A DNA stretch of 32,828 nucleotides from Bifidobacteriaceae bacterium (GTDB lineage Bacteria > Actinomycetota > Actinomycetes > Actinomycetales > WQXJ01). The notes under the pieces are model-generated. The model was not told the DNA's origin. It was given only the letters and a program-made list of their open reading frames with translations, and made no database searches. The DNA lies in assembly GCA_031278675.1 (NCBI GenBank), contig JAITJY010000236.1:1-32828 (forward strand), read 5' to 3'. The translations under genes were made by a program, and so were the position numbers. Of this stretch, positions 502-22,022 are shown piece after piece. Every line of letters begins with the position of its first letter. Position 1 is the stretch's first letter.

Positions 502-576
502 GGCCGGGGTAGCTCAATGGTAGAGCATCCGACTGTGGATCGGAGAGCGCGGGTTCGATTCCCGTCCCTGGCACCA
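502..576 (+). tRNA. tRNA-His (anticodon GTG), atypical: A73 discriminator, genomic G at -1, encoded CCA
   Basis: Hand-folded cloverleaf. Acceptor GCCGGGG (503-509) pairs with CCCTGGC (566-572). D arm is GCTC/GAGC. Anticodon stem is TCCGA/TCGGA with loop CTGTGGA (anticodon 535-537 GTG). T arm is GCGGG-TTCGATT-CCCGT. Position 573 is A, then CCA at 574-576. G502 sits at -1 opposite A73. Confidence 0.88.
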
Positions 577-608: not shown

Positions 609-2090
609 ATGACAACTAAACTGGCCTCACCTACGCCGCTCAGAGGGTTTCAAGATCTTCTGCCTGCCGATATGTCGCTCAGAAATGAAGTCACGCGGAG
701 AATCGCCGGTGTTTACCAGGCTTACGGGTACCTCCCTCTAGACACTCCAATAGCAGAGCGCCTCACCACATTAAAGGGAGCGGGCGGCGACGAAACCGAC
801 GCGCTAATCTTCACCCTACAAACCCCGGAAGGACAAAAGATTGGTCTGAGATTCGATCTGACTGTTCCTTTCGCTAGGATAGTGGCGAACTACCACCCTC
901 ATAGAATCAAGCTGCCCTTCCGCCGGTACCACGTCGGACCTGTATTCAGAGCTGATGCACCTCAACCCGAGCAAGGACGATACCGTCAATTCACGCAATT
1001 CGATATCGATGTAGCCGGCAGTGAGGATGTCTCGGCCGACGCAGAGATCGTTGCTGTGATGTGCGACGCCATGGCATCGCTGACACTGTCTCCTTCGAGC
1101 GATCCCGAGGAACCAGGCTACTTCATCCGGATCAACAGCAGAAAGCTCGTTGACGCTGCATTGGCCGGGCTCGGACTCACAGAGCGCCACGTTGTTCATC
1201 ACGTACTGCGAGTCCTGGATAAGCTCGATAAGCTTCCTGAAGACGAGGTTCTCAAAGAGCTTCAAACTGGCCGGGTCGACTCGTCTGGAGCATTCGTGGA
1301 TGGTCTCGGGTTAGAGGAGGGAACTGCCACCGCCCTTCTTCGGTTTGTCAAAATTCGGGGTTGGGGACGAAGAGATACCCTAGCCCAACTAGAAGCGAAT
1401 CTCCCAAATACTAGCGCTTCGGCAGAGGCGGTAAACGAGATGAGCCTCCTACTGGACCACCTAGATGCGCTTGGGGTTGAGGAGCATGCTGTACTGCTTG
1501 ACGCAAGCCTTGCCAGGGGTCTTGAGTACTACACGGGTATCGTTTACGAAGGCACTCTTAGCGGCTCGGGTGTAGGGTCAGTCATCGGCGGCGGTCGGTA
1601 CGACGGACTAGTCAGCCGATTTAGTAACGAACGAATCCCCGCCGTCGGCGCATCGATTGGACTGGACAGGCTGGTGGCCGGGCTTAGAACGCTAAATATC
1701 CCAATCGTCGAATCCGGCCAGGCAGCAGTGACGCTAGTCCTAGCCACGGATCCCGCGCTTCAGATTGAGGCGAGCCGCGTTGCCGGTGAGCTGCGTCGAA
1801 GCGGAATTCCGACGGAACTCTATACCGGGGAAGCCATTGGAAAACTGGCCAAAGCGTTGCGCTATGCGAACTCGCGGGGCTTCTCCGTCACTGTCGTTGT
1901 TGGACCGGACGAACTCGCAGGGGGGTACGTTTCCGTAAAAGATCTCAGCCGTGGCAAAGAAGAGAGGGCGCAGATATCGGCGCGCGAGACGTATCGAGCG
2001 GCGGGAAGGGTTGGTCAGCACCAAGTCAACCGTGAGGACATGCCTCGCGCTGTAATGAACATAATTAAAGGGGTGCCAAGTGACGAATAA
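609..2090 (+). CDS. hisS: Histidyl-tRNA synthetase, full length with anticodon-binding domain; eukaryote/archaea-like sequence signatures
   Basis: Class II HisRS motifs: LRFDLTVPFARIVA; motif 2 RRYHVGPVFRADAPQPEQGRYRQFTQFDIDVAG; LARGLEYYTGIVYEG; motif 3 GGGRYDGLVSRF...PAVGASIGLDRL. C-terminal anticodon-binding-like region is VTLVLA...RYANSRGFSVTVVVGPDELAGGYVSVKDL. The VLDKLDKLPEDEV segment resembles the DKLDK..EEV segment of eukaryotic HisRS. Weak SD AAGGA at 598-602. Confidence 0.9.
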   Translation: MTTKLASPTPLRGFQDLLPADMSLRNEVTRRIAGVYQAYGYLPLDTPIAERLTTLKGAGGDETDALIFTLQTPEGQKIGLRFDLTVPFARIVANYHPHRIKLPFRRYHVGPVFRADAPQPEQGRYRQFTQFDIDVAGSEDVSADAEIVAVMCDAMASLTLSPSSDPEEPGYFIRINSRKLVDAALAGLGLTERHVVHHVLRVLDKLDKLPEDEVLKELQTGRVDSSGAFVDGLGLEEGTATALLRFVKIRGWGRRDTLAQLEANLPNTSASAEAVNEMSLLLDHLDALGVEEHAVLLDASLARGLEYYTGIVYEGTLSGSGVGSVIGGGRYDGLVSRFSNERIPAVGASIGLDRLVAGLRTLNIPIVESGQAAVTLVLATDPALQIEASRVAGELRRSGIPTELYTGEAIGKLAKALRYANSRGFSVTVVVGPDELAGGYVSVKDLSRGKEERAQISARETYRAAGRVGQHQVNREDMPRAVMNIIKGVPSDE

Positions 2091-2922
2091 AGTGGAACGC
2101 CACCCAACTACGTTGCTCATTTCTGCGGCGGGCGGCAATGCCACTGCTATCGCGGCAATTGACAGCCCTCTTTCGCGGACTGAATACGCGGCACGGGGAA
2201 GCCGTTTGCTCTCAAGTTTGCAAGGCGACGGAGCCGAGCAGGCGGGGTTCTTCCTGCCGAGTTCCGCTCACTTAGAAATGGCTGGTGCGGAATTCTGCGG
2301 CAACGCTACGCGGGCTGCCTTCGTAGCCCGTGAGATTCTCGGCGGAGACCGACGGGAGCGCATCACGGTTTCGGGTTACGAAGGCTCCGTCCTTGGGGCC
2401 GCACAACCTTCTTCTTGCGACCAGTGCGGCTCAACGTGCCAGTGCGGGCGCCATTTCATTGCGTGGTGCGCGTTTGAGCGCATGCAAATTCGCACGCAGG
2501 ACTGCGTATGGAGCCGAGGGCGCGGTACTCTTGTCGACCTTGGTGGAATCGTCCACTTCGTGACGTGGGACCTTTGGCCGACCGAAAGCTCCGAGGTTAG
2601 AGCTTACCATGAGGCCTTCAGGGACGAGATGGATCTCCAGAATCGAGACGCCGTCGGGCTAGTGCGGCTTCGAGAGATTCGAACGGCACTCGGCGCTCCC
2701 GCAGATGGCTTGCTCGGCATTTTTCCCATAGTTTGGGTGCGAGCAATTGACAGCTTCTTCTTTGAGACCTCGTGTGGCTCAGGCTCAATTGCCGCTGCAG
2801 TCGTCGCTGGCAGCGGACCAGTTGTCCAGCCGTCGAACGGCGTGATTGACGTCCGAGTCGAAGGACCATTCGTCCGGCTGGAGAGCGAGATGGAGGTATT
2901 GATGTGCACTTCGAACGGCTAA
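2080..2922 (+). CDS. DapF-fold (PLP-independent, two-cysteine) amino-acid epimerase/racemase-like protein with a Cys-rich insert
   Basis: N-terminal GGNAT (compare DapF GNDF). EMAGAEFCGNATRA (Cys73) resembles the DapF xMCGNGxRC motif. GGIVHFV resembles GNPHxV. ETSCGSGSIAAA (Cys232) resembles DapF ETLACGTGA. GTG start with AAAGGGG SD. Overlaps the hisS stop by 11 nt. Confidence 0.7.
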   Translation: MTNKVERHPTTLLISAAGGNATAIAAIDSPLSRTEYAARGSRLLSSLQGDGAEQAGFFLPSSAHLEMAGAEFCGNATRAAFVAREILGGDRRERITVSGYEGSVLGAAQPSSCDQCGSTCQCGRHFIAWCAFERMQIRTQDCVWSRGRGTLVDLGGIVHFVTWDLWPTESSEVRAYHEAFRDEMDLQNRDAVGLVRLREIRTALGAPADGLLGIFPIVWVRAIDSFFFETSCGSGSIAAAVVAGSGPVVQPSNGVIDVRVEGPFVRLESEMEVLMCTSNG

Positions 2923-3536
2923 TTGCTTCAAGCACTAGTGCCTCCGACATCCAAGACTTCGTCGCCGCCTACCGGGATGCTTTTGGCGGCGCACCCTACT
3001 TTGAGACGTATAGCGACGAATACATTCGGGATGAGGTACTGATCCCGCATCTCGAGAATGGACTAGTAGTGGTCGCCCGGGACAATGGCCACGTAGTTGG
3101 ATTTGGCTGTACGGTACCGGTCTATTCGTCGCCCCCTGATGTCATGGAATATATCAAAAAGCTTTCAACAGAGCCAGGCCTCCCATCCGATCTGGCACTC
3201 GAGCGGACATGGTACATGTCGGAACTGGGCACGGTAACCACTTATCGCCTGCGGGGCGTAGCGTATCAGGTGGTGCGTAGCAGGCTGATTTCAGTTTCTC
3301 ATATGGGCGGGCTGTTCTACTTCATGCGAACGGCAAAGGAAGGCTCCAATTCGCGGCACCTTTACGCGCGAATCGGCGCGCTGCCAATTGGTCAGCCTCA
3401 GAACGTTGGCGGTCTGAGAGTAACGAAAGATTCCTCCTCAAGAAGCTTAGAGCGCCAGTACATGTACGGTCGCGTAAGTGATGGGCTAGAGGCTGTACTG
3501 GGCAGGATTCGCGAAAGCGCAGACACGTCGTGCTGA
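2904..3536 (+). CDS. GNAT-family acyl-CoA N-acyltransferase
   Basis: YMSELGTVTTYRLRGVAYQVV contains the R-x-x-G-x-A pyrophosphate-binding loop of GNAT motif A, and the beta-strand pattern VVVARDNGHVVGFG lies upstream. GTG start 7 nt after GGAGG. Overlaps the upstream gene by 19 nt. Confidence 0.7.
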   Translation: MHFERLIASSTSASDIQDFVAAYRDAFGGAPYFETYSDEYIRDEVLIPHLENGLVVVARDNGHVVGFGCTVPVYSSPPDVMEYIKKLSTEPGLPSDLALERTWYMSELGTVTTYRLRGVAYQVVRSRLISVSHMGGLFYFMRTAKEGSNSRHLYARIGALPIGQPQNVGGLRVTKDSSSRSLERQYMYGRVSDGLEAVLGRIRESADTSC

Positions 3537-3596: not shown

Positions 3597-4124
3597 ATGA
3601 AGCAATATCAAATTGCCGTTATCGGTTCAGCCGGTTCAGAGGAGTATCCTTACGACAAGCCGCTGGCAGCTATGTTTGAAGCTGCTGAAAAAATCGGCCA
3701 ACTACTGGCTGTTAACAAGCTAATCGTGGTTTGTGGTGGCAAGGGCGGCGTGATGGAAGCCGTCAGTCGGGGTGCTAAATCAGCTGGAGGTATAACCGTA
3801 GCCGAAATTGCCGGCTTAAGCCGATGGGCTGCAAACGACTACATTGATGTCGAAATTGTGACTGGCGACCTGGCGTTTCGTGGGCCATCGCAACTTATCG
3901 CTATGTCAGATGCCGTTATTGCGTTAGGCGGCGGTAGCGGAACTTTACAGGAAATTTGTGTGGCGTATCGCCTCCAGAAACCAATAATTTTGCTAAGAGG
4001 TTTTGGCGGTTGGGTCGATAAACTATCACCAGTGAGTTTCTTGGACGAAAGGCGGCTAGTAAAATTTTACCAAGCGACAACGCCTGAAAATGCAGTCCAA
4101 AAAGCATTAAGTATGTTGAAATAG
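3597..4124 (+). CDS. LOG/SLOG-superfamily Rossmann protein (TIGR00725-like; possible nucleotide phosphoribohydrolase or nucleotide sensor)
   Basis: CGGKGGVMEAVSRGA (GGxxGxM motif) and LGGGSGTLQE (PGGxGTxxE-type motif) are the LOG-family signatures. Size is 175 aa. AGGGA SD lies 7 nt upstream. Confidence 0.75.
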   Translation: MKQYQIAVIGSAGSEEYPYDKPLAAMFEAAEKIGQLLAVNKLIVVCGGKGGVMEAVSRGAKSAGGITVAEIAGLSRWAANDYIDVEIVTGDLAFRGPSQLIAMSDAVIALGGGSGTLQEICVAYRLQKPIILLRGFGGWVDKLSPVSFLDERRLVKFYQATTPENAVQKALSMLK

Positions 4125-4194
4125 GAATCAATATGAATCTAAGTTTATCACGCATCGAAACAACAGCTTCAATCGTCAACGTTCTAATCGTCGA

Positions 4195-4794
4195 CTGTCG
4201 ATTGAGGTAGAGGCTGCCAGCTTAGATAAATCAGCCGGTAGTATGACTCTGGTTGACGACTTGGCAGTTTCTGGCCGGACTATCGAGGTCGCCAGGAGAA
4301 CACTAACAACTTCTGGCCAAACCATCGGCACTGTTGGACTGGGTTTACTCTTTAATAGCAACAGATGTCAAAGGCTAATCGGCGTAGACGACACGCGTCC
4401 GGTGGTAGTTTATTCACGCGAGGGCGGAAGTTATCCACCTATCAACCCTATCGACACGCTTGCTGGTAATGCCGGGATTTTAGAAGGCCTAACCGAACGG
4501 TATTTTCAACCAACCCAGCCAATTTTCGAGGCGGTCCCCCTAGAGAAGGTTGTCGCCTTTGATTCGAACATCGACTTCATCGTAGCGGGCAGACTGATTG
4601 TAGAACACCGCCCATTCCCGATCGCCAAAGGAAAAATGCCACCACTCCCCGTAAAAAGGAGCAAATCCCTCGTCGACCAACAAGTCATGCAGAAGTATGC
4701 GGTTCGCCCGCGCTCCTTTCGACACTTGGGTGGAAAATGTTGGAATCTTGACGGGATTCGAGAAATCCGATATCCGAGTCCCCATTTGAAGTGA
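4195..4794 (+). pseudogene. Type I phosphoribosyltransferase-like ORF lacking the N-terminal half; probable remnant, boundaries uncertain
   Basis: The PRPP-binding motif MTLVDDLAVSGRTIEVA sits at the first ATG (4243). PRTase-like sequence (LSIEVEAASLDKSAGS) continues upstream in the same frame with no canonical start back to the stop at 4117-4119. The 3' 255 nt are antisense to the VanX-like gene. Confidence 0.35.
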
Positions 4795-5244
4795 CTGTCC
4801 GGCTTGAGAGACTAATGTCAAGTCGACCGCAGCACCAGCTGGATGTCCAGCAACTGAGGGTACAGCGGTGAAGGCGTGAGTAATGCGAATGAGCGCGGAT
4901 TCAGTGATGTACGGGTGAGCCTTGCGGAGCATTCGAAGTCTTTGATCGTAGTATTGGCGCTGGATATCCGGATGTCTGTAGCCATAGACTATGCAGAGTC
5001 TCAGGCCTCTTGCTTTAGCAGCTTGATTCACGAGAGAGAGCTTCTGCGCAACCGTTTCCCGGACAAGTATCGCGTTCCCGGTATAAGGCGTCATGTCCGT
5101 CTGGGTGTGCCGCGCTATGATGGTCGAGTCGAAGGTGCGGACGTCGAGGAGTGACTCGGCGCTTTGACCAGCGGGAACCGTAGCCAAATCGTCATACTCC
5201 AACACTCTCCGCGTAGTGAAGAATTCACTTGACAATCGCGCCAT
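4540..5244 (-). CDS. VanX/DdpX-like D-Ala-D-Ala dipeptidase (peptidase M15D)
   Basis: VAGHPAGAAVDLTL resembles the VanX S-x-H-x-x-G-x-A-x-D zinc/substrate motif. FYGEWWHFSF resembles the VanX EWWH motif about 30 aa from the C-terminus. AGGAGG SD lies 8 nt upstream of the ATG. Confidence 0.8.
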   Translation of the reverse strand: MARLSSEFFTTRRVLEYDDLATVPAGQSAESLLDVRTFDSTIIARHTQTDMTPYTGNAILVRETVAQKLSLVNQAAKARGLRLCIVYGYRHPDIQRQYYDQRLRMLRKAHPYITESALIRITHAFTAVPSVAGHPAGAAVDLTLVSQAGQSLQMGTRISDFSNPVKIPTFSTQVSKGARANRILLHDLLVDEGFAPFYGEWWHFSFGDREWAVFYNQSARYDEVDVRIKGDNLL

Positions 5245-5634
5245 GCAGCCAATTACCTCCTGTTAGTTCAATATTGCGACCAAGGAACGGAGGACTCCGC
5301 GGTACCATCCTTGTTCCGCAACGCATTCCTGCGCTGCGGCACTCTGTGCCAATCTATCAACAATTGATTTCGGCTGCTGCATTTACGGTTCGGCTTCCGG
5401 CGCGTATTTGGCGCGCAGCTCACCCTAGCGTGAATAGGGCTCAAACGCTTTGCTGCTATTGTGGCATACTTGTCTGCTCTCGTCAAGCGGCCGACAAGAC
5501 TCAACTTTACGTTGCTCGCACCATAGTCACCTAATGTGATCGCGAAACGGCGTGCTTGCCTCACTTGGGGGTGGTCGCGAAACGCCGCGGTCGCTGGCGC
5601 TTGGCGGGCTTCGCCGGGTGTTCGCTGGCTGGAC

Positions 5635-5826
5635 ATGGCGAAGGGCCTGGACATGGTGACGAAGCGTGGGTTGACGAAGGCCTACGCGGCTGACTACGGA
5701 CGTGCGTCGAAGACGGATAAGGGGCGGATGCTCGAGGAGTTGACGGCGGCTGCGGGCTGGTCGCGGGTGAACGCGCGTCGCGCGAGCAGGCGGGCGTCTG
5801 AGCGGCGCGGGCGGCGTCGGTGGTGA
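5635..5826 (+). mobile_element. N-terminal fragment (~63 aa) of a transposase (HTH region only); IS remnant
   Basis: MVTKRGLTKAYAADYGRASKTDKGRMLEELTAAAGWSRVNARRA resembles the N-terminal HTH segment of actinobacterial DDE transposases, from memory. The ORF stops long before any catalytic domain. Confidence 0.4.
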
Positions 5827-5867
5827 GCCACTTAGCCTGAGATAGGCGCTCGTAGGAGCCAAGAGAT

Positions 5868-5955
5868 TGAGGGGGCGTCCATGCTTGACGCTCCGCTGAA
5901 TCTTGCGCTCAATCATTCGGTGCTTACCAAACTGTCGATACGCGGAGACTATGGG
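5868..5955 (-). mobile_element. Possible C-terminal fragment of an IS5-family transposase
   Basis: The minus-strand frame reads YRQFGKHRMIERKIQRSVKHGR, which resembles the IS5-family Y(K/R)xRxxIERxFxxLKxxR C-terminal motif. There is no intact ORF context. Confidence 0.25.
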
Positions 5956-6030
5956 CATATGCGCAGGACGCGGTGCCACCATCGTGCAAGTAGGGGAGTA
6001 GAAGACTACGCGCTCATAGGGGTCTCAGAG

Positions 6031-6666
6031 TCACAGCGCCGCATATCCCGTCGTCCTCCCACTACCAACTCGGTGAATCAACCCATCCCCCACCAGCCGG
6101 TCAACGTCCATCTTGACCGTGCTGTAGTTGATGCCAGTTGCCTGAGAAATCTCCAACCTGCTGGCCCGCCCCTGCTGGCGAATGACGGCAAGCACGCCAG
6201 CTTGCCGCTGGGCGCGAGCATCGACACTGAGTTGTTTGGCCGACGCTTGGTGCTCGGCGTACTCGTCCGGCATAGCGCGGCGTAGCAGGTTGGAGATGGC
6301 TGCGCGGCTGACCCCATACCGCTGGGCGATGCTGGCTTGCGAGTCGCCCTGTCTGAATAGGCGCTCAATCTCGCGTAGCTGGTCATCGTCCAGCTTGCAC
6401 AGTGACTGCGGCCTGATCGTCACACCAGCCTTGCGAAGATGGGAGGCAACAGTGTCAGGCGATGAGCCGATAACCTCGGCCACTGCCGTTAGCGACTGGC
6501 CGCCCTCGTACATGGCGGCGGCCCGAGCGACGTCATCGTCGGTCCAGACCTTGGCCAACGGTCGCCACGTTCGCTCCGATGGTCCTGGGTCAGGCCGTTG
6601 ATCTGCGGCTTTGCTGATTTTCTGAAATAGGCGGAGTACGTGAGCCTGGTTTGAGTAGGCTCGCAC
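6031..6666 (-). CDS. Multi-HTH DNA-binding protein (three predicted HTH/winged-helix modules)
   Basis: Three HTH-like segments: GQSLTAVAEVIGSSPDTVASHLRKAG, GDSQASIAQRYGVSRAAISNLLRRA and SRLEISQATGINYSTVKMDVDRLVGDGLI. Confidence 0.6.
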   Translation of the reverse strand: MRAYSNQAHVLRLFQKISKAADQRPDPGPSERTWRPLAKVWTDDDVARAAAMYEGGQSLTAVAEVIGSSPDTVASHLRKAGVTIRPQSLCKLDDDQLREIERLFRQGDSQASIAQRYGVSRAAISNLLRRAMPDEYAEHQASAKQLSVDARAQRQAGVLAVIRQQGRASRLEISQATGINYSTVKMDVDRLVGDGLIHRVGSGRTTGYAAL

Positions 6667-6806
6667 TAGGCCCGCCAGATGCGTCCATGCGCCGGCGATG
6701 ATCTGTCTGGACGCGGGTTGCGAGCGCCTGTGGACGGGCGATGCCCGGTTGGCCAGCGCCGCCCGGGGTTTCGCAATTGACGTATTCGCGGATCGGCGGA
6801 CCCGGG

Positions 6807-8363
6807 CTAAGACCCACCCGCCGGGACACTGCCCGGCAACAGGACGCGGGCGATCCGGTTGCGCACGCCATCCGGGATGCGGCGCCAGGCCCGCTTCGCC
6901 AACGGCGGACGCGATCTGACCGGTTTGGCGAGGCTTAAGAACAGGGCCGACCAGCGCTCGGCGAGACGTTCCTCGGAGAACTCCGTCATGCGGGCCGCCG
7001 CGTTGGCTGACATGGCGCGCTTCGCCGAGGCAGGCGAGTCGAGATACTCGATAATCCGGCGTGCCAACTCGGCCTGATTGCCGGGCTCAACCAGGTGGCC
7101 GTTGACCCCGTCTAGGATCATCGCCGCCGGACCGTATTTTGTGTCATAAGCGATGCACGGCGTCCCGGCCGCCATCGACTCCATGATGGTCAGCGAAAAC
7201 CCCTCCCAGCGTGAGGTCAACAAAGAGCATTCGGCGGTCCCGAAGACCGCCCTCGCACTGTTGGTGTAACCAGCGAAGTTGACCGCCTCAGCGAGGTTCA
7301 AAGACCCGGCGAACGCCTTCAAATCGCTCTCCAAGGGGCCGTGGCCCCAGACCTCGAGCTGCGCGTCGGGACGCGCCTGGCGCACAGCGCCCAATGCGGC
7401 GATCGCCGAGGCCACATTCTTTTCTTCGCTCAGCCGCGCCACCATCACCAGTTTCCCCGGGACGGTGTCCGGCGCCGGCGGCGCCGGCGTAATGGCATGC
7501 GGTATTACATGAAGACGATCCTCAAATCCGAACCGGTCCACCACGTCAGCCTTTTGTTGCGGCGTCAGCACCACCAACGCGTCAACCCCGGGCAGATTGT
7601 TCAACACCGCCCGGTTCCCGGTCCGGATAACCGACGATCCGGGCCGCTCATGAATCGAATGGAACACAAAAATCTTCCGGGCCAACCGGTTCTCCAGTGA
7701 CAGCAACACCCCGTCAAGCGCCCGCGCCTCACACACCAGATACGTCAATTCGCCCGCGCTCAGCTCGGCCATAAAATGCCGCCTGAAGCCGTCCAGCGTC
7801 CGAAAGGCCCGCGCCGCGCCGGTCAGCGGCGCCAACACCACCTCCGCCTTCGGATACGGTCCACCCGGCGGCGCCGCTCCCACCGGGCGGTACTGGAAGA
7901 CCGACCCATCCGGCCTGCACCACAAGCGCCCCACCGCCCGGCCAGCCACCGTGATGGTCGCCGCATAGGGCGCACCGCTTGGATCATGGACCTCCCGGAC
8001 CTCATAAGTTGGCAGGTCACGGCACAGTTCGGTGATCGCCTCGGCCACCTTGGGCGCACCTGGCGCCGCCGCCGCGCCCCGGTAATAGTGGTTGATGTTG
8101 ACCAGGCCAACCCCACACGGCAGGTCATAGCGTTCACGCACCGCAGCCGCGACTTCACCGAAGCCTGCGGCGTCGTGAAAGGTCGCGATCACCGGATAGA
8201 TTCCCCGCAAGCGAGCCAGCACCCCCGCCTTGCGCAGCAGTGAGGCGGTCAAGCCGCCGTGTTCGGCGTCCAAGCGGCTCGTCAAAAAGACATAACGCAA
8301 CGCGATCCCCCGCAATCTCGTAGCAAAGTGGTAGCCAGTGGGCTGTCCAGCCCATGCTAACAA
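6807..8363 (-). CDS. GT4-family glycosyltransferase (TagE-like size)
   Basis: C-terminal GT-B signature ...LLTSRWEGFSLTIMESMAAGTPCIAYDTKYGPAAMILDGVNGHLVE (E-x7-E motif). Confidence 0.85.
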   Translation of the reverse strand: MLAWAGQPTGYHFATRLRGIALRYVFLTSRLDAEHGGLTASLLRKAGVLARLRGIYPVIATFHDAAGFGEVAAAVRERYDLPCGVGLVNINHYYRGAAAAPGAPKVAEAITELCRDLPTYEVREVHDPSGAPYAATITVAGRAVGRLWCRPDGSVFQYRPVGAAPPGGPYPKAEVVLAPLTGAARAFRTLDGFRRHFMAELSAGELTYLVCEARALDGVLLSLENRLARKIFVFHSIHERPGSSVIRTGNRAVLNNLPGVDALVVLTPQQKADVVDRFGFEDRLHVIPHAITPAPPAPDTVPGKLVMVARLSEEKNVASAIAALGAVRQARPDAQLEVWGHGPLESDLKAFAGSLNLAEAVNFAGYTNSARAVFGTAECSLLTSRWEGFSLTIMESMAAGTPCIAYDTKYGPAAMILDGVNGHLVEPGNQAELARRIIEYLDSPASAKRAMSANAAARMTEFSEERLAERWSALFLSLAKPVRSRPPLAKRAWRRIPDGVRNRIARVLLPGSVPAGGS

Positions 8364-8377
8364 TCCCGCCCGAATGG

Positions 8378-8935
8378 TTAGTCATCCGTTGCACGATGCC
8401 GCGTGGCCAGCACCGCCGCCACCACCAGCGCATCGCCCGGCAAGTCCACCACCCCACCCTGCGGCTCGCTACGGCGATCATCGGTGGATCCGGGCTTCGC
8501 CCACACGCGCTCCACCCAGCCCCCCCGCACCAGGCAGTCGACCGCCTCAGCTACCACCCATTGCCCGATCACGCCCGCCCCCACGGTCCCGCCCGCCCAG
8601 ATTGCCCGGCGCACCGGGTGAGCCCCGCCTACCAGCGTCAGGTCCCGTTCGGCGAGGAAGCGGACGAGCGGGACGAGGCGGCATCGTCCTTGGGCGAAAA
8701 CCCAACGGCCCTCGACGTCAACCTCCACCACCTGGTCGAGCCGGCGCCGGTCCAACTGCGCCAAGACCGCCCGGATCGAGGGGACCCCGGGAGACGGATC
8801 GTCCGGGCCGGAGCGATATTCCGCCCGGCCCGCCCCGTAAAGCGAAGTCACCAACTGGCCGACAGCCGCCGTGTGGTAAAGGTGGCCAACCAAGCGCGCC
8901 GCCTCCCGGTGCCCCGCCCGCCCGAACAAGCTCAC
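8378..8935 (-). CDS. Hypothetical protein
   Basis: This is the most protein-like composition among several overlapping high-GC ORFs. GTG start with AAGGTGG SD. The 3' end runs into a partial MITE copy. No motif recognised. Confidence 0.45.
   Translation of the reverse strand: MSLFGRAGHREAARLVGHLYHTAAVGQLVTSLYGAGRAEYRSGPDDPSPGVPSIRAVLAQLDRRRLDQVVEVDVEGRWVFAQGRCRLVPLVRFLAERDLTLVGGAHPVRRAIWAGGTVGAGVIGQWVVAEAVDCLVRGGWVERVWAKPGSTDDRRSEPQGGVVDLPGDALVVAAVLATRHRATDD
8415..8497. repeat. Partial copy (one terminus plus about 80 bp) of the 159-bp MITE-like element
   Basis: ...CTGCGGCTCGCTACGGCGATCATCGGTGGATCCGGGCT aligns with the reverse complement of the copy A left end, ...GCCGCTGGCTACGGCCATCATCGGTGGATCCAGGCT. 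Confidence 0.5.
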
Positions 8936-8974
8936 CTGGCCACCTTACGTGATGCGATGCGCCACAATGGCTAA

Positions 8975-9688
8975 GTGCGAGTGATTCTGGCCGTGATGGC
9001 ACATCCTGATGACGTTGACTTCTGGGCTGCGGGCACGGTGGCCACCTGGGTCGCGGGCGGCGCCCGGGTGACATATTTGCTGGTCACCGGCGGTGACGCC
9101 GGGGGGTTCGAGGCCGGTGCCGAACGCGGGGAGATGGGCCGGCGGCGCCGGGATGAACAGCGCCGCGCCGCTGGTGTTCTCGGGGTGGGAGATGTCCGGT
9201 TCCTCGACGGCTTCGCCGATGGCGCCGTCGCCGTGACCGACGAGTTGGTCGGCGGTATTGTCCACGCTATCCGCGAACTGCGTCCCGACCTCGTCTTGGC
9301 CCAAAGCCCCACCCGGACCTGGCACGACATCCGCCTGTCTCACCCCGATCACCTCGCCGTTGGCGAGGCCACCGCCCGGGCGGTCTACCCCTTCGCCCGC
9401 AATCCTTTCGCTGACTTCGGCGCGGCCGGCTCCGACGCAGCCAGCCTTGCTGCGTTCGCGGTCCGTGAACTCTGGCTTCAGGGCGATCCCGAACCGAACC
9501 ATGTGGTAGATGTGACCGCGTTTAGGGCCCAGCGCCGCGAGGCGCTGGCTGCTCATGCCAGCCAGCATCCCGACCTCCCGGGCGCCTTGGACCGGGCCGA
9601 ACGGGAGGCTGGCGGCGTCGCCGCGCGGTGGGGCTTACCGAAGGGCTCCCTCGCCGAGGAGTTCAGACGGATTCTGATTCCTCATTAG
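8975..9688 (+). CDS. PIG-L/LmbE-family N-acetylglucosaminyl deacetylase
   Basis: N-terminal VMAHPDDVDFWAAGT (AHPDD motif) and the later SHPDH motif. Confidence 0.85.
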   Translation: MRVILAVMAHPDDVDFWAAGTVATWVAGGARVTYLLVTGGDAGGFEAGAERGEMGRRRRDEQRRAAGVLGVGDVRFLDGFADGAVAVTDELVGGIVHAIRELRPDLVLAQSPTRTWHDIRLSHPDHLAVGEATARAVYPFARNPFADFGAAGSDAASLAAFAVRELWLQGDPEPNHVVDVTAFRAQRREALAAHASQHPDLPGALDRAEREAGGVAARWGLPKGSLAEEFRRILIPH

Positions 9689-10613
9689 GCGGCGGTTCGG
9701 CTTCCTCGGTCGGCTCGGGGCTGAGTTCTTCCGAGGGTTCTTCGGTCGGCTCCTCAATCGGTGGTTCTGCGGGGTCTTCCGGCTCGCGGGTAGCCGGCGC
9801 TTCGGTGGGTTCCACCGGGGACGGCTCCGGCGTGATAGTGACCGTGACGGTCGGGGCCGGCTCGTCCGGGGCCGATGGGCTGGGAACCGGCGGCGGGGCC
9901 GGCTCCTCCCGGTTGACGAAGGTGGTAGTCCGGCCCGAATCGTCCCCCGTTACTATGTCGGACAGCGACCGGCCTGCCAGCAATTCGACCCCCGTCACCA
10001 CCGCCGAGATGACCAAGAACAGCACTATCCCCAGCGCCGCCAATGTGCGCGCCGTCCCGTGCCGTGCGATCATTTGGCTGAGCCACCCAGGCGAGTTGGC
10101 GTCCACCTCGGGCAGCTCTGCGGTATCCCCAGCCGAGTTGGGGTCCGGCTCGGGCAGCTCGGCGGTATCCCCAGGCGAGTTGGCGTCCACCTCGGGCAGC
10201 TCGGCGGTATCCCCAGCCTTAGCGGCAGCGGCCGGCTCGGCCGGTTCGGCCGGCTCGGCGGCGCTACCTGCTGCCGCAGCGGCATCGTCGGCATCGGCCG
10301 CTCCGCCGACCGGCTCCGGGGCGGGTGCCTCGCGGGCGGCACCGTCCGATCCCGCGTCTGCCTGGACCGGGCTGGCCGGCGAAACCAAGGTGGCGGCTTG
10401 GTGCGCCAAAGTCTTGACGGCTTGATGGGTGCGCCGCAGCGAACGGGAATAGACATAGTTGCCGACCACCGTGATGACCGAAGCGAGGGCCGCGCCGAGG
10501 ATGGTGCCCGTCGCGCCCAGGTAGGACAGCGCCACGGTGGCCGTCGCTGCGGCCAAAGCACTGGCAAGCACTTGGACAACCGAAATCCCCGCCGGCCGTT
10601 TGTCGCTGGGCAT
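9663..10613 (-). CDS. Pro/Glu/Ala-rich membrane protein with 14-aa tandem repeats
   Basis: Two predicted TM segments (VVQVLASALAAATATVALSYLGATGTILGAALASVITVVG and TLAALGIVLFLVISAVVTGVELL) and three GDTAELPE(V/P)D(A/P)NS(P/A) repeats. The opposite-strand Ser/Gly ORF looks like an antisense artefact. Confidence 0.6.
   Translation of the reverse strand: MPSDKRPAGISVVQVLASALAAATATVALSYLGATGTILGAALASVITVVGNYVYSRSLRRTHQAVKTLAHQAATLVSPASPVQADAGSDGAAREAPAPEPVGGAADADDAAAAAGSAAEPAEPAEPAAAAKAGDTAELPEVDANSPGDTAELPEPDPNSAGDTAELPEVDANSPGWLSQMIARHGTARTLAALGIVLFLVISAVVTGVELLAGRSLSDIVTGDDSGRTTTFVNREEPAPPPVPSPSAPDEPAPTVTVTITPEPSPVEPTEAPATREPEDPAEPPIEEPTEEPSEELSPEPTEEAEPPPNEESESV
10087..10212. repeat. 3 x 42-bp in-frame tandem repeat
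   Basis: Units at 10087-10128, 10129-10170 and 10171-10212. Units 1 and 3 differ at one base. Confidence 0.85.
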
Positions 10614-10663
10614 AGGCCCACGCTATCTCATCCGGCGCGGGAGCGCGCGGGGGCGGGCGATGG

Positions 10664-11365
10664 TTGCGGCATCATTGGATGGTGCCTGATACGCCAAGCC
10701 GCCTCGCCGCCGCCGGGACCCCGCTCAGTTGGTACGGGACTCTGGTCGGCGCGTTTGCTGCGCTGCTCGTCGTCTCCAACATCGCGGCGGTCAAGCTGAT
10801 CGGTCTAGGCCGCCTGGAACTGTTTGGGACCGGGATCGACATCACCGTCGATGGGGGCGCTCTCCTGTTCCCTTTGACGTATGTGCTCGGCGATGTGCTT
10901 GCCGAGGTGTTCGGTTTCAAGGCGGCGCGCCGCGCCATCTGGGTCGGGTTTGTCTGCGCTGCGCTGGCTGTCGGCTCGTTCTGGTTGGTGGGCGTGGCGC
11001 CACCGGCCGCCAACTGGCTGGGCCAGGGCGCCTTCACGCAAACGCTCGGGTTTGTGCCGCGGGTGGTGGCCGCCTCCCTGGCCGGCTATCTGGCCGGACA
11101 GCTTTCGAATGCTTTCACGCTGACCGCTATGAAACGGCGGGCCGATACGGCTTTGTGGCGGCGCCTGCTCGGCTCCACCCTGGTCGGCGAACTCGCCGAC
11201 ACCGCAGTGTTTTGCACCGTCGCGTTCTATGGGGTGATCACCGGGCCGCAGTTCTTCGGCTACGCCGCCCTGGGCTACATCTACAAGTGTCTCGCTGAGG
11301 TTGTCTTGTTACCCATCACCTATGGGGTGATCCGGGCGACCCGGCGCCACGAGGCGCGCCTCTAG
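10664..11365 (+). CDS. yhhQ: Queuosine-precursor transporter YhhQ (DUF165/VUT family)
   Basis: DGGALLFPLTYVLGDVLAEVFGFKAARRAIW matches the conserved YhhQ FPxTxxxxDxxxExYG core, and the protein is multi-TM. Start is either TTG 10664 or ATG 10679. Confidence 0.8.
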   Translation: MRHHWMVPDTPSRLAAAGTPLSWYGTLVGAFAALLVVSNIAAVKLIGLGRLELFGTGIDITVDGGALLFPLTYVLGDVLAEVFGFKAARRAIWVGFVCAALAVGSFWLVGVAPPAANWLGQGAFTQTLGFVPRVVAASLAGYLAGQLSNAFTLTAMKRRADTALWRRLLGSTLVGELADTAVFCTVAFYGVITGPQFFGYAALGYIYKCLAEVVLLPITYGVIRATRRHEARL

Positions 11366-12366
11366 TTGAGGACGCCCGGATCACCCGGATCGATTATCGC
11401 GATGATCCGGTTGAGGTCTGCGACCGAAGCAAACTCGATCACAACGCGGCCCTTGGTCTTGCCCAGCGCCACCACCACCTTCGTGTCGAGCTTGTCGGTC
11501 AGCCGTTCCTGGAGCGCATTCAGCGCGCCATGGCGGCCGCCGGGGCGGGCCTTGGCCCGTTTCGGCTTCGCCGGCACATCACCCAGCGTCACCGCTTCCT
11601 CCGTGCTACGCACCGAAAGTCCCTCCGCGACGATCCGCTGGGCCAGGCGTTCCATTGCCGCAGTGTCTTCCAGTCCGAGCAATGCCCGGGCGTGCCCCGC
11701 CGAGATCACGCCGGCGGCGACGCGGCGCTGGACCAACGGCGGGAGCTTCAACAGCCGCAAAGTGTTGGAGATCTGCGGCCTTGAGCGGGCTACCCGCACC
11801 GAGAGTTCTTCTTGGGTACAAGAAAAGTCGTCCATCAACTGACGGTAGGCGGCGGCTTCTTCGAGCGGGTTGAGTTGCGCGCGGTGGAGGTTTTCCAGCA
11901 GGGCGTCGCGCAGCAGTTCCGCGTCATCTGTCGCACGCACGATGGCGGGCACCTGGTCCAGCCCAGCCATCTGGCAGGCGCGCCACCGCCGCTCCCCCAT
12001 CACCAGTTCGTAGTGCCCGTCACCGCCGGCGCGCGGCGGGCGGACCACGATCGGTTGCAGCAGCCCGACTTCTTTGATCGAGTCGGCGAGTTCTTCGAGG
12101 GATGACTCATCGAACACCTCGCGCGGCTGGCGCGGATTGGGCGAGATAGCGCCGATAGGAATCAGGCTGAATTCAGCGCCGGGCACAAGGACCAACTCCG
12201 GGGCTTGGCCGGGTGCCGCCTGCCTGGTGCGCTGCACCCCTGAGGGCGCGAACAACAAGTCGACCGGCCGTCGTTCCGCTGGTTCCGCTCCGCCCTGCGC
12301 GGGGCGCCCCGGGCCTGGAATCAGCGCTCCCAGTCCTTTGCCGAGCCCTGTCCTTCGTTCAGCCAT
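11362..12366 (-). CDS. parB: Chromosome partitioning protein ParB
   Basis: GLGKGLGALIP, ISPNPRQPREVFDE, GLLQPIVVR and GERRWRA motifs. Start chosen at MAERRTGLGKG (ATG at 12366), overlapping the parA stop by 8 nt. Confidence 0.92.
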   Translation of the reverse strand: MAERRTGLGKGLGALIPGPGRPAQGGAEPAERRPVDLLFAPSGVQRTRQAAPGQAPELVLVPGAEFSLIPIGAISPNPRQPREVFDESSLEELADSIKEVGLLQPIVVRPPRAGGDGHYELVMGERRWRACQMAGLDQVPAIVRATDDAELLRDALLENLHRAQLNPLEEAAAYRQLMDDFSCTQEELSVRVARSRPQISNTLRLLKLPPLVQRRVAAGVISAGHARALLGLEDTAAMERLAQRIVAEGLSVRSTEEAVTLGDVPAKPKRAKARPGGRHGALNALQERLTDKLDTKVVVALGKTKGRVVIEFASVADLNRIIAIIDPGDPGVLN

Positions 12367-13384
12367 GGCGTCCTCCTGCGCGTTTGGCGATTTCCAGCGC
12401 TGCTTCCAAGTAGGCCAGCGCGCCTGTCGAGTTCTTGTCATAAGTGATCACGGTCTGGCTGTAGCCGGGGGCTTCCGAAATTTTGACCGACCGCGGGATG
12501 GTGGTCTGCAGGACCAGCTCGGGGAAATGCGTCCTGACCTCGCTGACCACATCCCGGGCCAGGTTGGTCCGCCCGTCATACATGGTCAACAAGATCATGG
12601 AGACGGCTAGTTCTGGATTGAGCGCCTCCGCGACCCGTCCCACCGTCCCGAGCAACTGCGAGAGGCCTTCCAGCGCGTAGTACTCGCACTGGATGGGGAT
12701 GAGGACTTCTTTGGCCCCCACAAAGGCGTTCAAGGTGAGCAGCCCCAACGATGGGGGGCAGTCGATCAACACATAGTCGAGTGGGCGTTCGCCCGCCGCT
12801 CGCAATCCCCGCCGCGCTTGTCCTAACGCCTCGTGCAGCCGATACTCGCGTTGCGGCAGGTTCACCAGTTCGATCTCCGCGCCAGCTAATTCGATGGTGG
12901 CCGGCACACACCAGAGGTTGTCGAGATCTGCGCAGGGCTGCACCGTCTCCAGCATGGGCCGACCGTCCAACAACACGTCGTAAATGGACGGGACCGCCGC
13001 GTGATGCGCCACCCCGAGCGCCGTCGAAGCGTTCCCCTGCGGGTCCACGTCTACCACCAATACCCTCAGTCCCCGATCCGCCAAGGCGGCCGCCAGGTTG
13101 ACGGTGGTTGACGTCTTACCCACCCCGCCTTTCTGGTTGGCGACGGTAATGATCCTGGTGGCGGGGGGTTTCGGGTAGACCTCATCACGCAGCCTGAGCC
13201 GCCTCATCGCGTCGAGTTGCGCCTGTTCCCCGAGCGGCGTATCGACCGCGCCGCCGCCCGATGTTTCACGTGAAACATCTACTGCTGGCCCGGCGACTGA
13301 TTCCTCGATTGACACCCCATAAGTATGGACCAGACCCCTGACACCGTTAGCCGCGCGCGGCGCGCTTGCGCGCCTTGACCACAT
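12359..13384 (-). CDS. parA: Chromosome partitioning ATPase ParA/Soj
   Basis: Deviant Walker A ITVANQKGGVGKTSTT and downstream ParA motifs. The N-terminal extension means the start is uncertain. Confidence 0.9.
   Translation of the reverse strand: MWSRRASAPRAANGVRGLVHTYGVSIEESVAGPAVDVSRETSGGGAVDTPLGEQAQLDAMRRLRLRDEVYPKPPATRIITVANQKGGVGKTSTTVNLAAALADRGLRVLVVDVDPQGNASTALGVAHHAAVPSIYDVLLDGRPMLETVQPCADLDNLWCVPATIELAGAEIELVNLPQREYRLHEALGQARRGLRAAGERPLDYVLIDCPPSLGLLTLNAFVGAKEVLIPIQCEYYALEGLSQLLGTVGRVAEALNPELAVSMILLTMYDGRTNLARDVVSEVRTHFPELVLQTTIPRSVKISEAPGYSQTVITYDKNSTGALAYLEAALEIAKRAGGRHG
13262..13277. other. parS centromere site (perfect 16-bp palindrome TGTTTCACGTGAAACA)
   Basis: Exact match to the canonical parS consensus. 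It lies in the 5' coding extension of parA (encodes DVSRET). Confidence 0.9.
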
Positions 13385-14147
13385 AAGTCGGGCTCAGACC
13401 GGCCACGGGGATCAGTTCGACGACCTTCGCCCCCACCAATCCCGCCCGCGCTAGGTCCCGCCCGCAGTCCGCCAGTTCGCCCGCCGCGCCGACGCCTTTC
13501 ATCGCCAAGAAGCGCCCGCCTGCCGCCAGCAAGCCGCCCTGCCACCGCGCCAGCTTGTCCAGCCGCGCCACGGCCCGCGACACGGTGCACGATGCCGCCC
13601 GCCCCCGCAATTCCTCAGCCCGCGCCCAAGTCACCGCCACGTTGGCCAGCCCGAGGCATTGTGTGGCTTCGCTCAGCCAATCCGTGCGCCGCCGCATCGA
13701 GTCCACCAACTCGAATTCCAGATCAGGCCGCATCAGCGCCAACACCACCCCGGGCAGGCCCGCCCCGGAGCCCACATCGATCACCAGTCCACTCGGCGGC
13801 AACAGGCCGGCCACGGCAGCGCTGTTGATCAGGTGCCGCTCCCACAGCCGGTCCAATTCGCGCGGCCCCAACAGGCCGAGCAATTCGGCGCGCTCGGACA
13901 ACAAGGCGGCGAACTGCTGGACGCGGCCGAAGCTCTCGCCGAATAGTGCCTCAACCCCGGCGGCTAGTGGGCTGGCGCGTCTGCTCTGTGCGCTTCGCGC
14001 GCGGTCGCGGGTGGTGGCTGGCCGGGCGGAGCCCTGGCCGCTAGCTGGAGGTAACGGCCTGGCCGGGGCGCTGCCGGGTCCCGGCCCCGGGCTTGCGCGC
14101 CAGCCCACCGATTCGGCGCGAGCGCCCAAGGGCTCCGCTCCCGGCAT
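13347..14147 (-). CDS. rsmG: 16S rRNA (guanine527-N7)-methyltransferase RsmG (GidB)
   Basis: LWERHLINSAAV and VIDVGSGAGLPGVVLA (SAM-binding) motifs. The long low-complexity N-terminus makes the start uncertain. Confidence 0.88.
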   Translation of the reverse strand: MPGAEPLGARAESVGWRASPGPGPGSAPARPLPPASGQGSARPATTRDRARSAQSRRASPLAAGVEALFGESFGRVQQFAALLSERAELLGLLGPRELDRLWERHLINSAAVAGLLPPSGLVIDVGSGAGLPGVVLALMRPDLEFELVDSMRRRTDWLSEATQCLGLANVAVTWARAEELRGRAASCTVSRAVARLDKLARWQGGLLAAGGRFLAMKGVGAAGELADCGRDLARAGLVGAKVVELIPVAGLSPTYVVKARKRAARG

Positions 14148-14151
14148 CTCA

Positions 14152-14310
14152 GCCTGGATCCACCGATGATGGCCGTAGCCAGCGGCACCAGACGGAGGCG
14201 ATGGGCGTTCCTGGCCGGTGATGGCTACCTGGTGGCCTGCCCGGCTGGTCAGGGGCGTCCAGCGTGCCGGGGAGGGGCGGCGCGGTAGGCGAGGATCGGT
14301 GGATCGAGGC
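14152..14310 (+). mobile_element. MITE-like element, copy A (159 bp), flanked by TCA/TCA
   Basis: TIRs: GCCTGGATCCACCGAT on the left and ATCGGTGGATCGAGGC on the right. Alignable over its full length with copy C, and with copy B in inverse orientation. It fills almost the whole rsmG-jag intergenic space. Confidence 0.8.
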
Positions 14311-14778
14311 TCAAGCAGGCCGGATCACCACGTAACGCTTAGGGTCTTCGCCTTCGGACTCGCTGGACAACCCAGCTTCAGCGACGGCATCGTGCACCAT
14401 CTTGCGCTCGAAGGCATTCATCGGCGCTAGCGGCACCGGTTCACCCCCGGCTTGAACCTGTGCGATCGCTTCGGCCGCCAGCGCCCGCAACCGGGCGCGC
14501 TGACCCACCCGGTAACCGGCGATGTCCACCATCAAAAGCGAGCGTTCGCCTGTCTTGGCCTGGACCGCGAGCCGGACCAACTCCTGGACCGCGTCCAAGA
14601 CTTCCCCGTTCGGCCCGACCAGTTGGTCCAGGCCGTCTGCGGCGCCTTCCTCGCCGACTATGGCTACCACCGCGCGCCCGTGGTCCACATCGATATCGAT
14701 ATCGCCGTCGATGTCGGCGATGTCGAGTAGCTCTTCCAAGTAATCGGCGGCGATCTCGCCCTCTAACTCAAGGTCCAT
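14311..14778 (-). CDS. khpB: Jag/KhpB RNA-binding protein (KH + R3H domains)
   Basis: C-terminal R3H region PMNAFERKMVHDAVAEAGLSSESEGEDPKRYVVIRP. Conserved position downstream of yidC. GAGGAG SD. Confidence 0.88.
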   Translation of the reverse strand: MDLELEGEIAADYLEELLDIADIDGDIDIDVDHGRAVVAIVGEEGAADGLDQLVGPNGEVLDAVQELVRLAVQAKTGERSLLMVDIAGYRVGQRARLRALAAEAIAQVQAGGEPVPLAPMNAFERKMVHDAVAEAGLSSESEGEDPKRYVVIRPA

Positions 14779-14790
14779 TGGCGTACTCCT

Positions 14791-16260: not shown

Positions 16261-16663
16261 GTGTCACCTTTCTCGTGCCCCTCTTAGCCTGGATCCACCG
16301 ATCCTCGCCTACTGCGCCACCCCCGCCAGGCCCGCTGGACGCCCCTGACCCGCTGGGCAGGCCACCGGGTAGCCATCGCCGACCAGGCACGCCCATCACG
16401 CCCTTCCGGGGCTGCTCGATCCGCCGATCCTCGGCGGATCCAAGCTTAGGGACATGGTCCACACCACCGGGATGAAACGGCTGGCAGCGCACCAGCCGCC
16501 ACAAGGCCAGCCCACCACCCTTGACCAGCCCGTGCCGCCGCAAAGCCACCACCGCGTAGCTGGAACAGGTCGGATAAAACCGGCACCGCGGGACAAACAG
16601 CGGCGAGATCGCGACCTGGTAGGCGCGGACCAGGGCTGCGGCCCCCCGCCCTGCCCACCTCAT
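16247..16663 (-). CDS. yidD: Membrane protein insertion efficiency factor YidD, with C-terminus extended ~63 aa by read-through of a MITE
   Basis: Conserved core LVRAYQVAISPLFVPRCRFYPTCSSYAVVALRRHGLVKGGGLALWRLVRCQPFHPGGVDHVP. ATG 16663 overlaps the rnpA stop (ATGA). Downstream of DHVP the ORF is entirely MITE copy B sequence and ends inside the yidC start region. Confidence 0.8.
   Translation of the reverse strand: MRWAGRGAAALVRAYQVAISPLFVPRCRFYPTCSSYAVVALRRHGLVKGGGLALWRLVRCQPFHPGGVDHVPKLGSAEDRRIEQPRKGVMGVPGRRWLPGGLPSGSGASSGPGGGGAVGEDRWIQAKRGTRKVTHGLA
16287..16445 (-). mobile_element. MITE-like element, copy B (159 bp, inverted relative to A and C), flanked by TTA/TTA
   Basis: Termini are GCCTGGATCCACCGAT and CGGCGGATCCAAGC. 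The interior aligns with the reverse complement of copy A. Confidence 0.8.
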
Positions 16664-16989
16664 CGCAAAGCCTTCGCCAAGGCGCGGCAAACGGCATCGT
16701 CCAACTGGGCGTACGTGGCGTGCGCGGCGCCCGGCAACGCCCGCACCACCACGTCGAGGCTAGGGTCGATCCCGGGCAGGCGGGCAGCCGCGATGGCCCG
16801 CAACCGGCGCACTACCCGATGTCGCTCCACTGAGTTCCCCACTGCTTTCGATACCACAGTTCCGGCTCGCCACGGCCCTACGGTCGGCTGGACGTAGACC
16901 ACCGCCCACCGGCTAGCCCCACGCCGACCGGCGCGGATCAGCGCCGCGAACTGGGCCGGGCGTCGAATCCGATGGTCTTTGGCGAGCAA
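16660..16989 (-). CDS. rnpA: Ribonuclease P protein component
   Basis: VSKAVGNSVERHRVVRRLR matches the RnpA RNR motif. Conserved position after rpmH. Confidence 0.9.
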   Translation of the reverse strand: MLAKDHRIRRPAQFAALIRAGRRGASRWAVVYVQPTVGPWRAGTVVSKAVGNSVERHRVVRRLRAIAAARLPGIDPSLDVVVRALPGAAHATYAQLDDAVCRALAKALR

Positions 16990-16998
16990 ACCGGCGGA

Positions 16999-20434: not shown

Positions 20435-20443
20435 TAAGTAGCC

Positions 20444-22013: not shown

Positions 22014-22022
22014 GTAGAATAG

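Follow-up and report, generated by a model that had tools for sequence, protein, structure and literature searches.

An open reading frame (ORF) at positions 2080 to 2922 of the window, a stretch of 32,828 nucleotides (nt) that forms contig C271 of a Bifidobacteriaceae metagenome-assembled genome (MAG), encodes, on the evidence of its sequence profile and predicted fold, a pyridoxal phosphate (PLP)-independent two-thiol racemase of the CntK/HisR family and not a diaminopimelate epimerase (DapF). The enzyme most likely interconverts L- and D-histidine. Its relatives form a module with a GNAT N-acyltransferase and an M15 zinc peptidase that is conserved in Patescibacteria and in reduced-genome Clostridia, for which no published description was found; the window gene adds a divergent member to an enzyme kind that is already known. 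The full reading, in which a histidine racemase core is combined with acylation of D-histidine (D-His) by the GNAT and recovery by the M15 enzyme, on an island of Patescibacteria type, is on balance probable. The racemase and its residues are placed as follows.

2080 to 2922, plus strand: CntK/HisR-type two-cysteine racemase, 280 amino acids, GTG start (family profile, AlphaFold2 (AF2) model, Foldseek).
2296 to 2298, plus strand: predicted catalytic Cys73, codon TGC, in GAEFCGNATRA, with Glu71 two residues upstream corresponding to Glu65 of HisR (alignment).
2416 to 2448, plus strand: lineage-specific cysteine-rich loop C113-G123, CDQCGSTCQCG (alignment, AF2 model).
2773 to 2775, plus strand: predicted catalytic Cys232, codon TGT, in FETSCGSGS, with Glu229 three residues upstream corresponding to Glu206 of HisR (alignment).

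The start of the ORF overlaps the stop of an upstream histidyl-tRNA synthetase (HisRS) gene by 11 nt and its end overlaps the start of the GNAT gene by 19 nt; an earlier note made from the letters of this DNA (the original prediction) had pointed out both overlaps. The racemase gave no local Pfam match at E 0.01, DAP_epimerase (PF01678) included, and no match to the NCBIfam dapF model. Its only NCBIfam matches were the two histidine-racemase models, HisR-Fusobacterium (1.3e-8) and CntK (1.5e-7), and homologues at 36-46% identity carry the CntK_N domain (PF26317). The family profile matched HisR (9CR1/9CR6) at 1.9e-25 and CntK at about 1e-15 in the PDB, and no DapF structure at E < 0.01. The AF2 model, with a pLDDT (predicted local distance difference test) score of 89.8, has the two-domain DapF fold; the top Foldseek matches were HisR and CntK (E 1e-18 to 1e-15, template modelling (TM) score 0.64-0.77), and DapF came after them, at 1e-11. 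A separate dapF, a PF01678 gene, is present in the genome on contig C144, so the ORF is not the genome's only dapF, and with the missing family match this led us to reject a DapF identity. The same comparisons agree with the original prediction that the protein stands far from housekeeping DapF.

Both catalytic cysteines of the fold, which the original prediction had also recognized, are invariant in an alignment of 20 family sequences (A1), and they align with the catalytic Cys67 and Cys209 of HisR (GGEFCGNASRA and YENSCASGT). Glu53, Glu71 and Glu229 are likewise invariant and align with Glu49, Glu65 and Glu206 of HisR. Glu65 and Glu206 have been proposed as ligands of the imidazole in HisR, as have Glu46 and Glu208 in earlier work on CntK (PMC11602996). 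By analogy, Cys73 and Cys232 would act as an opposed acid/base pair, and the three glutamates would hold the imidazole ring. The suggestion that the DapF fold had been recruited away from diaminopimelate, with histidine as the best guess for the substrate, is thus supported by the profile, the fold, the glutamates and the neighbouring genes.

HisR (FN1732 of Fusobacterium nucleatum; PDB 9CR1/9CR6; PMC11602996) is the best match of the window racemase in both profile and fold. The two proteins have in common the two-domain DapF fold, a cysteine pair at helix N-termini, the equivalents of Glu49, Glu65 and Glu206, and the motifs AEQxGF, GxEFCGNA and (Y/F)ExSCxSG. In contrast to HisR, the window protein carries two additional loops, including the cysteine-rich one, and the HisR gene stands among aminodeoxychorismate-type genes and not with a GNAT, M15 or hisS gene (PMC11602996). 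CntK, from the staphylopine biosynthesis of Staphylococcus aureus (PDB 6JIS/6JIW/6L4L), belongs to the same family, since relatives of the window protein carry CntK_N, and it has the same fold and catalytic residues. DapF shares the superfold and the two-thiol mechanism, but the window protein matches no DapF family model. A staphylopine-type (Cnt) opine metallophore pathway was considered and rejected on the absence of CntL, since no match to the NAS family (PF03059) was found in the 90%-complete genome. The search for CntM with Octopine_DH (PF02317) gave no match in this genome, nor in any of the control genomes.

The conservation of the module was examined in 80 loci from species-representative genomes and in metagenome contigs; the clustering covered 39 loci. 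Racemase, GNAT and M15 genes are adjacent in most close relatives; the 18 non-redundant loci of the close clade include 13 with GNAT, 15 with M15 and seven with HisRS. HisRS is found in 16 of the 39 clustered loci, and a tRNA-His lies inside the locus in five, in four of them next to HisRS. The coupling of racemase and GNAT that the original prediction had proposed is realized as a single fused protein in many relatives: racemase::GNAT fusions are encoded by P0036 and, at lengths of 457-479 amino acids, by six Microgenomates-type loci. In each of these six the M15 gene follows directly, with HisRS after M15 in three and before the fusion in a fourth. The other order of fusion, M15::racemase, occurs in P0110, P0276 and P0277, and a search for longer fusions returned only racemase with M15.

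Other neighbours recur as well. A HutH-like aromatic amino-acid lyase is found in six loci, an AstE/AspA-like deacylase, HisG and HisE in five each and a TrpR-like regulator in seven, and HisZ is also among the recurrent neighbours. One locus of a reduced-genome Clostridia reads HisRS, HisZ, HisG, racemase::GNAT, HisIE, HisRS, M15. HisG (with HisZ) and HisE or HisIE stand beside the racemase in L057 (6179-10025), L011-L013 (about 6740-7950) and L016 (1433-2740). HisD was found in none of the five carrier genomes tested and HisA/HisF were missing in four of the five, while in the fifth (G010) His_biosynth was matched only in part and just above threshold (26.2 bits, cut-off 23.6). HisG, HisZ and HisIE therefore look like orphans, the apparent first steps of a histidine synthesis with no obvious purpose beside the module. 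No family of Ddl or Mur ligases, CntL or CntM was found among the conserved neighbours in the relatives. Every recurrent partner points to histidine, and none to peptidoglycan ligases or opine synthesis.

Four small carrier genomes of 0.5-0.9 Mb (G001, G002, G003 and G010, the genomes of L014, L017, L019 and L016) contain two HisRS-like genes. The module-linked copy scores as canonical in these genomes; the others have lower scores and are placed apart from the module-linked clades, and those of G002, G003 and G010 form a separate divergent clade.

In a genome of the Micrarchaeota, an archaeal lineage of the DPANN group, the racemase stands together with an M15 peptidase and a HutH-like lyase (L084, about 7956-12030), and the module thus crosses domains.

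The partner genes in the window lie in a low-GC stretch from about 300 to about 5300, which holds tRNA-His, HisRS, racemase, GNAT, SLOG4, a short uncertain ORF and M15.

503 to 576, plus strand: tRNA-His, anticodon GTG, with G encoded at position -1, discriminator A73 and CCA encoded (ARAGORN; Rfam tRNA, 73 bits).
609 to 2090, plus strand: second, island-borne HisRS, 493 amino acids, with anticodon-binding domain (TIGR00442; PF13393 tRNA-synt_His and PF03129 HGTP_anticodon).
2904 to 3536, plus strand: GNAT N-acyltransferase, 210 amino acids, acyl-CoA loop RLRGVA (R115-A120) at 3246-3263 (Pfam, alignment A2, AF2, Foldseek).
3597 to 4124, plus strand: SLOG cluster 4/TIGR00725 protein, 175 amino acids, an occasional member of the module (PF18306, 4.8e-32; TIGR00725, 112.6 bits against a cut-off of 106.9).
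4243 to 4539, plus strand: uncertain ORF, possible gene remnant (N-terminus LVDDLAVSGRT, read from the translation, recalls a phosphoribosyl pyrophosphate (PRPP)-binding motif).
4540 to 5244, minus strand: VanX-like M15 zinc D-specific dipeptidase/amidase, 234 amino acids, convergent on the operon (PF01427, 2.4e-18).

The M15 protein scores 67 bits with PF01427 (cut-off 27) and only 47 with the NCBIfam VanX equivalog, whose cut-off of 320 is not reached. Aligned to VanX (1R44), it keeps GYRHP, GHPAGAAVDLTL and EWWHF, which comprise the His/Asp/His zinc ligands, the catalytic Glu and the transition-state Arg. Its identity to the M15 proteins encoded next to the racemase in Patescibacteria is 45-54%, and it belongs to the same module as the racemase. 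The original prediction had noticed neither this gene's membership nor the foreign, Patescibacteria-type character of the block.

The proposed mechanism builds on the family, the fold, the conserved residues, the gene linkage with its fusions and the foreign origin; from there on we infer the substrate, the direction of the flux, the acceptor of the GNAT and the substrate of the M15 enzyme. The racemase would be the core of a conserved cytoplasmic module and would interconvert L- and D-His. The translationally coupled GNAT would most likely use acyl-CoA to N-acylate the free D-His coming from the racemase, making the step irreversible. Enzymes of the DapF fold need a free alpha-amine, and a fused GNAT must therefore act after the racemase. 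The M15 enzyme most likely hydrolyses the amide bond before a D-residue, in N-acyl-D-His or in an X-D-His dipeptide, and the D-His freed in this way would return to the racemase and become L-His. The cell could thereby park histidine, and recover it, as a D-form out of reach of its own histidase and HisRS. Such a park-and-recover cycle fits both orders of fusion and the company of HisRS, HutH and the deacylase. A more specific version, a histidine-buffering cycle through N-acyl-D-His (stored or exported, de-acylated and racemised back) that was transferred from an ultra-small epibiont with a self-contained tRNA-His(A73)/HisRS pair, we consider rather doubtful.

Several points weigh against this interpretation. 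Identity of the racemase to HisR and CntK is no more than about 20%, and its scores fall far under the equivalog cut-offs (34.9 against 400 bits for NF052224 and 31.2 against 300 for NF033599), so its substrate specificity could differ; it is a separate subfamily and not an equivalog of either. The structural matches of the GNAT are generic and its acceptor is a guess. The write-and-erase cycle of D-His was constructed from the orders of fusion and not observed. The closest loci, L021, L023 and L024, have M15 but no tblastn match to GNAT, and GNAT is therefore not obligatory. No histidine-responsive leader was found, Rfam giving tRNAs alone (no T-box or His leader) in the loci of 10 relatives, and histidine-run leader peptides were not found in the relatives' loci either. 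The branch of the racemase is long (1.5) and its composition deviant, which could mean relaxed selection after the transfer. Since the island sits at the end of its contig and the MAG is 6.3% contaminated, a chimeric join is possible. A histidine-starvation switch was not confirmed on these loci, given the missing leaders and leader peptides.

The missing GNAT matches in the closest loci also speak for a one-way salvage of D-His, which is the main rival. Here the module would do no more than bring unusual sources of histidine into translation: the M15 enzyme would free D-His from dipeptides, the racemase would turn it into L-His, and the linked HisRS would charge it. The GNAT would be secondary and might, for example, detoxify a surplus of D-His or of an analogue. 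The M15::racemase order fits hydrolysis followed by racemisation, the linkage to hisS and tRNA-His is tight, and the tested carriers without HisA/F and HisD look like histidine auxotrophs. However, this leaves the very common racemase::GNAT fusion unexplained, and we know of no abundant natural source of D-His peptides. The 10 loci examined for a starvation-responsive leader contained none, and hisD, which marks histidine synthesis, is present in this host genome. We hold pure salvage to be possible and doubtful.

The VanX likeness of the M15 protein raises the question of the cell wall, since VanX-family enzymes classically act on D-Ala-D-Ala and VanC-type clusters (VanT/VanXY) likewise combine a racemase for amino acids with a zinc peptidase of the VanX family. 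The substrate of the module racemase could be Ala, Lys, Orn or Glu instead of histidine, and together with the VanX-like protein it could serve the remodelling or recycling of D-amino acids in peptidoglycan, as VanT and VanXY do, the histidine neighbours being coincidental; the low identity to HisR and CntK and a MurJ neighbour in one locus (L016) would allow this. Unlike the enzymes of VanC-type clusters, however, the module racemase is PLP-independent and of histidine type, and the module has no D-Ala:D-X ligase among its conserved neighbours, appears cytoplasmic and is linked to hisS. The three acidic pocket residues of histidine racemases are invariant, six histidine-related gene families recur beside the racemase in three separate lineages, and no Ddl or Mur ligase gene is among the conserved neighbours. 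No signal peptide was apparent on the M15 protein (N-terminus read by eye), and the racemase has none. A role in the cell wall is quite unlikely.

The GNAT gave 22.1 bits with Acetyltransf_1 (PF00583; cut-off 20.7). Its loop RLRGVA fits the R/Q-x-x-G-x-G/A acyl-CoA motif and is conserved in the GNAT family of the module (alignment A2), so that the original prediction of an intact loop holds, and the same alignment revealed an invariant N-terminal motif, AFGGxPY(F/Y)E. All Foldseek matches of the AF2 model (pLDDT 91.4) are GNATs, with ArsN/PAT, PA4866, YncA and RimI at the top, and the model resembles N-acetyltransferases of amino acids and small molecules, AANAT included. A search of the ESM Atlas gave generic GNAT clusters only. 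The alpha-amine N-acetyltransferases PAT, ArsN and MddA (YncA) are the best structural group, at an identity of just 9-19%; in contrast to them, the window GNAT has the AFGGxPY(F/Y)E motif and the fusion or coupling to a racemase. Yeast Hpa3, a D-amino-acid N-acetyltransferase, offers a likeness in function. A free amino acid is the probable acceptor, because the GNAT is fused to the racemase in relatives.

The original prediction had also allowed for an action on aminoacyl-tRNA in the manner of TacT and AtaT, and this part was not supported. In such a scheme the private tRNA-His(A73)/HisRS pair would supply His-tRNA, which the GNAT would acetylate as TacT and AtaT do or use as an aminoacyl donor as Fem enzymes and L/F-transferases do. 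The tRNA-His, HisRS, racemase and GNAT genes do form one co-directional overlapping string, and A73, unusual as a discriminator, suggests that this pair is kept separate from the one of the host. Yet the GNAT has the canonical acyl-CoA pyrophosphate loop, its top structural matches are small-molecule acetyltransferases, and no Fem, L/F-transferase or TacT-type enzyme was among the Foldseek matches listed. Beside the GNAT no small antitoxin ORF was found, its neighbours being the overlapping racemase and SLOG4; its fusion with the racemase is better explained by a free amino acid as acceptor, and in Patescibacteria the HisRS linked to the module has the look of the main, canonical copy. We regard tRNA-dependent chemistry as very improbable. 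A GNAT toxin of a toxin-antitoxin pair (TacT/AtaT/ItaT) was rejected on the missing antitoxin partner and the fold.

The island HisRS scores 331.6 bits with TIGR00442 (cut-off 286.75), and its translation shows the motifs GGGRYD and AVGASIGLDRL. It groups with the module-linked HisRS of the Patescibacteria loci L017, L019 and L026, each of which has an adjacent tRNA-His, and the genome's own hisS, on contig C437, is placed elsewhere in the tree. A self-resistance HisRS of an antibiotic cluster is unlikely, as the island enzyme groups with canonical module-linked Patescibacteria HisRS. The genome's other tRNA-His, on contig C240, has the bacterial G-1:C73 pair, which cannot form in the island tRNA-His because its position 73 is A. 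The module-linked tRNA-His genes of the Patescibacteria loci L016, L017 and L023 have C73, and in L019 and L026 position -1 is a C, so that no G-1 is encoded.

The racemase nests in a clade with 100/99 support that is dominated by Saccharibacteria and other Patescibacteria, and it was found in none of the 40 relatives of the host searched, 10 of them from the same genus. The third-position GC (GC3) of the island genes is 0.43-0.63 against 0.71-0.78 in host core genes, intermediate between typical Patescibacteria loci and the host. The block of tRNA-His, HisRS, racemase, GNAT, SLOG4 and M15 thus appears to be foreign DNA of Patescibacteria type, acquired horizontally close to oriC, with dnaA only about 12 kb away. 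The origin region, at 11362-27654, comprises parB, yidC, dnaA, dnaN, recF, gyrB and gyrA, followed by tRNA-Ile; this gene set is of the kind seen in Actinomycetota, from which we infer the taxon of the host chromosome. The right side of the island is marked by a border.

5536 to 6666, no strand: island border, with a step in GC, short fragment ORFs and a multi-HTH protein at 6031-6666 (GC profile; HTH_38, HTH_23 and MarR-type matches).

The fragment ORFs at this border gave no Pfam match. Left of the island, the first 300 nt of the window have 62.7% GC, and no repeat was found across the junction; together with the intermediate GC3, this argues for a real integration of the island. The contrary view is that the block is an inert passenger, decaying foreign DNA without a role, or an epibiont (Patescibacteria) piece misjoined to an actinobacterial contig. 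The low GC, the position at the contig end, the contamination of the MAG (3.15 Mb, 65.6% GC), the long branch and odd composition of the racemase, the possible gene remnant and the absence of the island from the 40 relatives could all be explained in this way. Against it stand five intact genes, whose starts and stops overlap and whose catalytic residues are complete, besides the GC and junction data, and a tRNA-His (A73) unlike the Patescibacteria tRNA-His genes seen. We consider a passenger or an artefact unlikely.

Only two cofactor-independent histidine racemases have been characterised, and the role of the D-His made by HisR is unknown. The window gene represents a third, much larger branch, and its partners (an acetyltransferase, a D-specific zinc amidase, hisS and tRNA-His) give a testable idea of what D-His could be for. 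No paper was found in the literature that links a histidine racemase with a GNAT, a VanX-like enzyme or hisS. Members of this branch come mainly from Patescibacteria and other reduced-genome organisms, and the branch may bear on how such largely uncultivated symbionts handle one scarce amino acid. The intact copy in an ordinary high-GC chromosome provides convenient sequences to express, and it is a possible trace of gene flow from epibiont-type to host-type bacteria. Three traits are specific to this window: its high-GC host, an A73 tRNA-His that accompanies the module, and the loop rich in cysteine.

The cysteine-rich stretch of the racemase covers residues 113-130 (2416-2469) and reads C113-x2-C116-x3-C120-x-C122, plus C130. 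The original prediction had described it as an insert with five extra cysteines and a possible metal or redox site. The stretch is real, but the alignment limits the actual insertion relative to the family to 10 residues, D114-G123 (2419-2448), and C130 is nearly invariant across the family, which leaves four extra cysteines. The segment that contains the loop is 25 residues long in 135 of 157 family members and 35 residues in the window protein alone, which has five cysteines there against 0-2 in each of the 156 relatives; this difference from the family is well beyond chance. An assembly error is not the cause, because an independent assembly from another run (L091) encodes an identical racemase protein. 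The DNA of the insert shows the 9 nt CCAGTGCGG at 2421-2429 and, identical and 18 nt further on, at 2439-2447 (QCG...QCG), which indicates that part of the loop was probably built by a tandem duplication of 18 nt. In the AF2 model the insert forms a turn between strands 103-110 and 125-132, with a pLDDT < 60. The active-site lid loops named for HisR are residues 42-49 and 197-206 (PMC11602996), and the insert aligns with neither. The loop is probably a recent expansion of a surface loop outside the catalytic apparatus.

The remaining features of the island are minor. A SLOG4 gene also stands beside the module in L008 and L016. After the SLOG4 stop the frame stays open (4126-4794), with the first ATG at 4243, and the 3' half of this frame overlaps the M15 gene; neither the ORF at 4243-4539 nor the frame to 4794 gave a Pfam match even at E 5. 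The ORF is possibly the remnant of a truncated phosphoribosyltransferase. PADLOC gave no match for any island protein, and membership of the island in a defence system was rejected on this result. An identity look-up for the racemase protein returned only a 2.9-kb contig. A near-identical fragment, P0148, has no contig on record, and two exact-pattern scans of metagenome contigs found no longer contig with the island.

In the search for the insertion site, the neighbouring glycosyltransferase region proved to be itself variable among relatives. The left flank and the unit at 296-470 had no match in the relatives or elsewhere in the genome. Just 5' of tRNA-His, positions 300-328 resemble a promoter and positions 429-450 a terminator with a strong hairpin. 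At 72-111, upstream of the start of a leftward gene at the contig edge, 19 nt are repeated in tandem (CGCCTGACCGGTCTTGCAT and CGCCTGACCGGTCTGGCAT).

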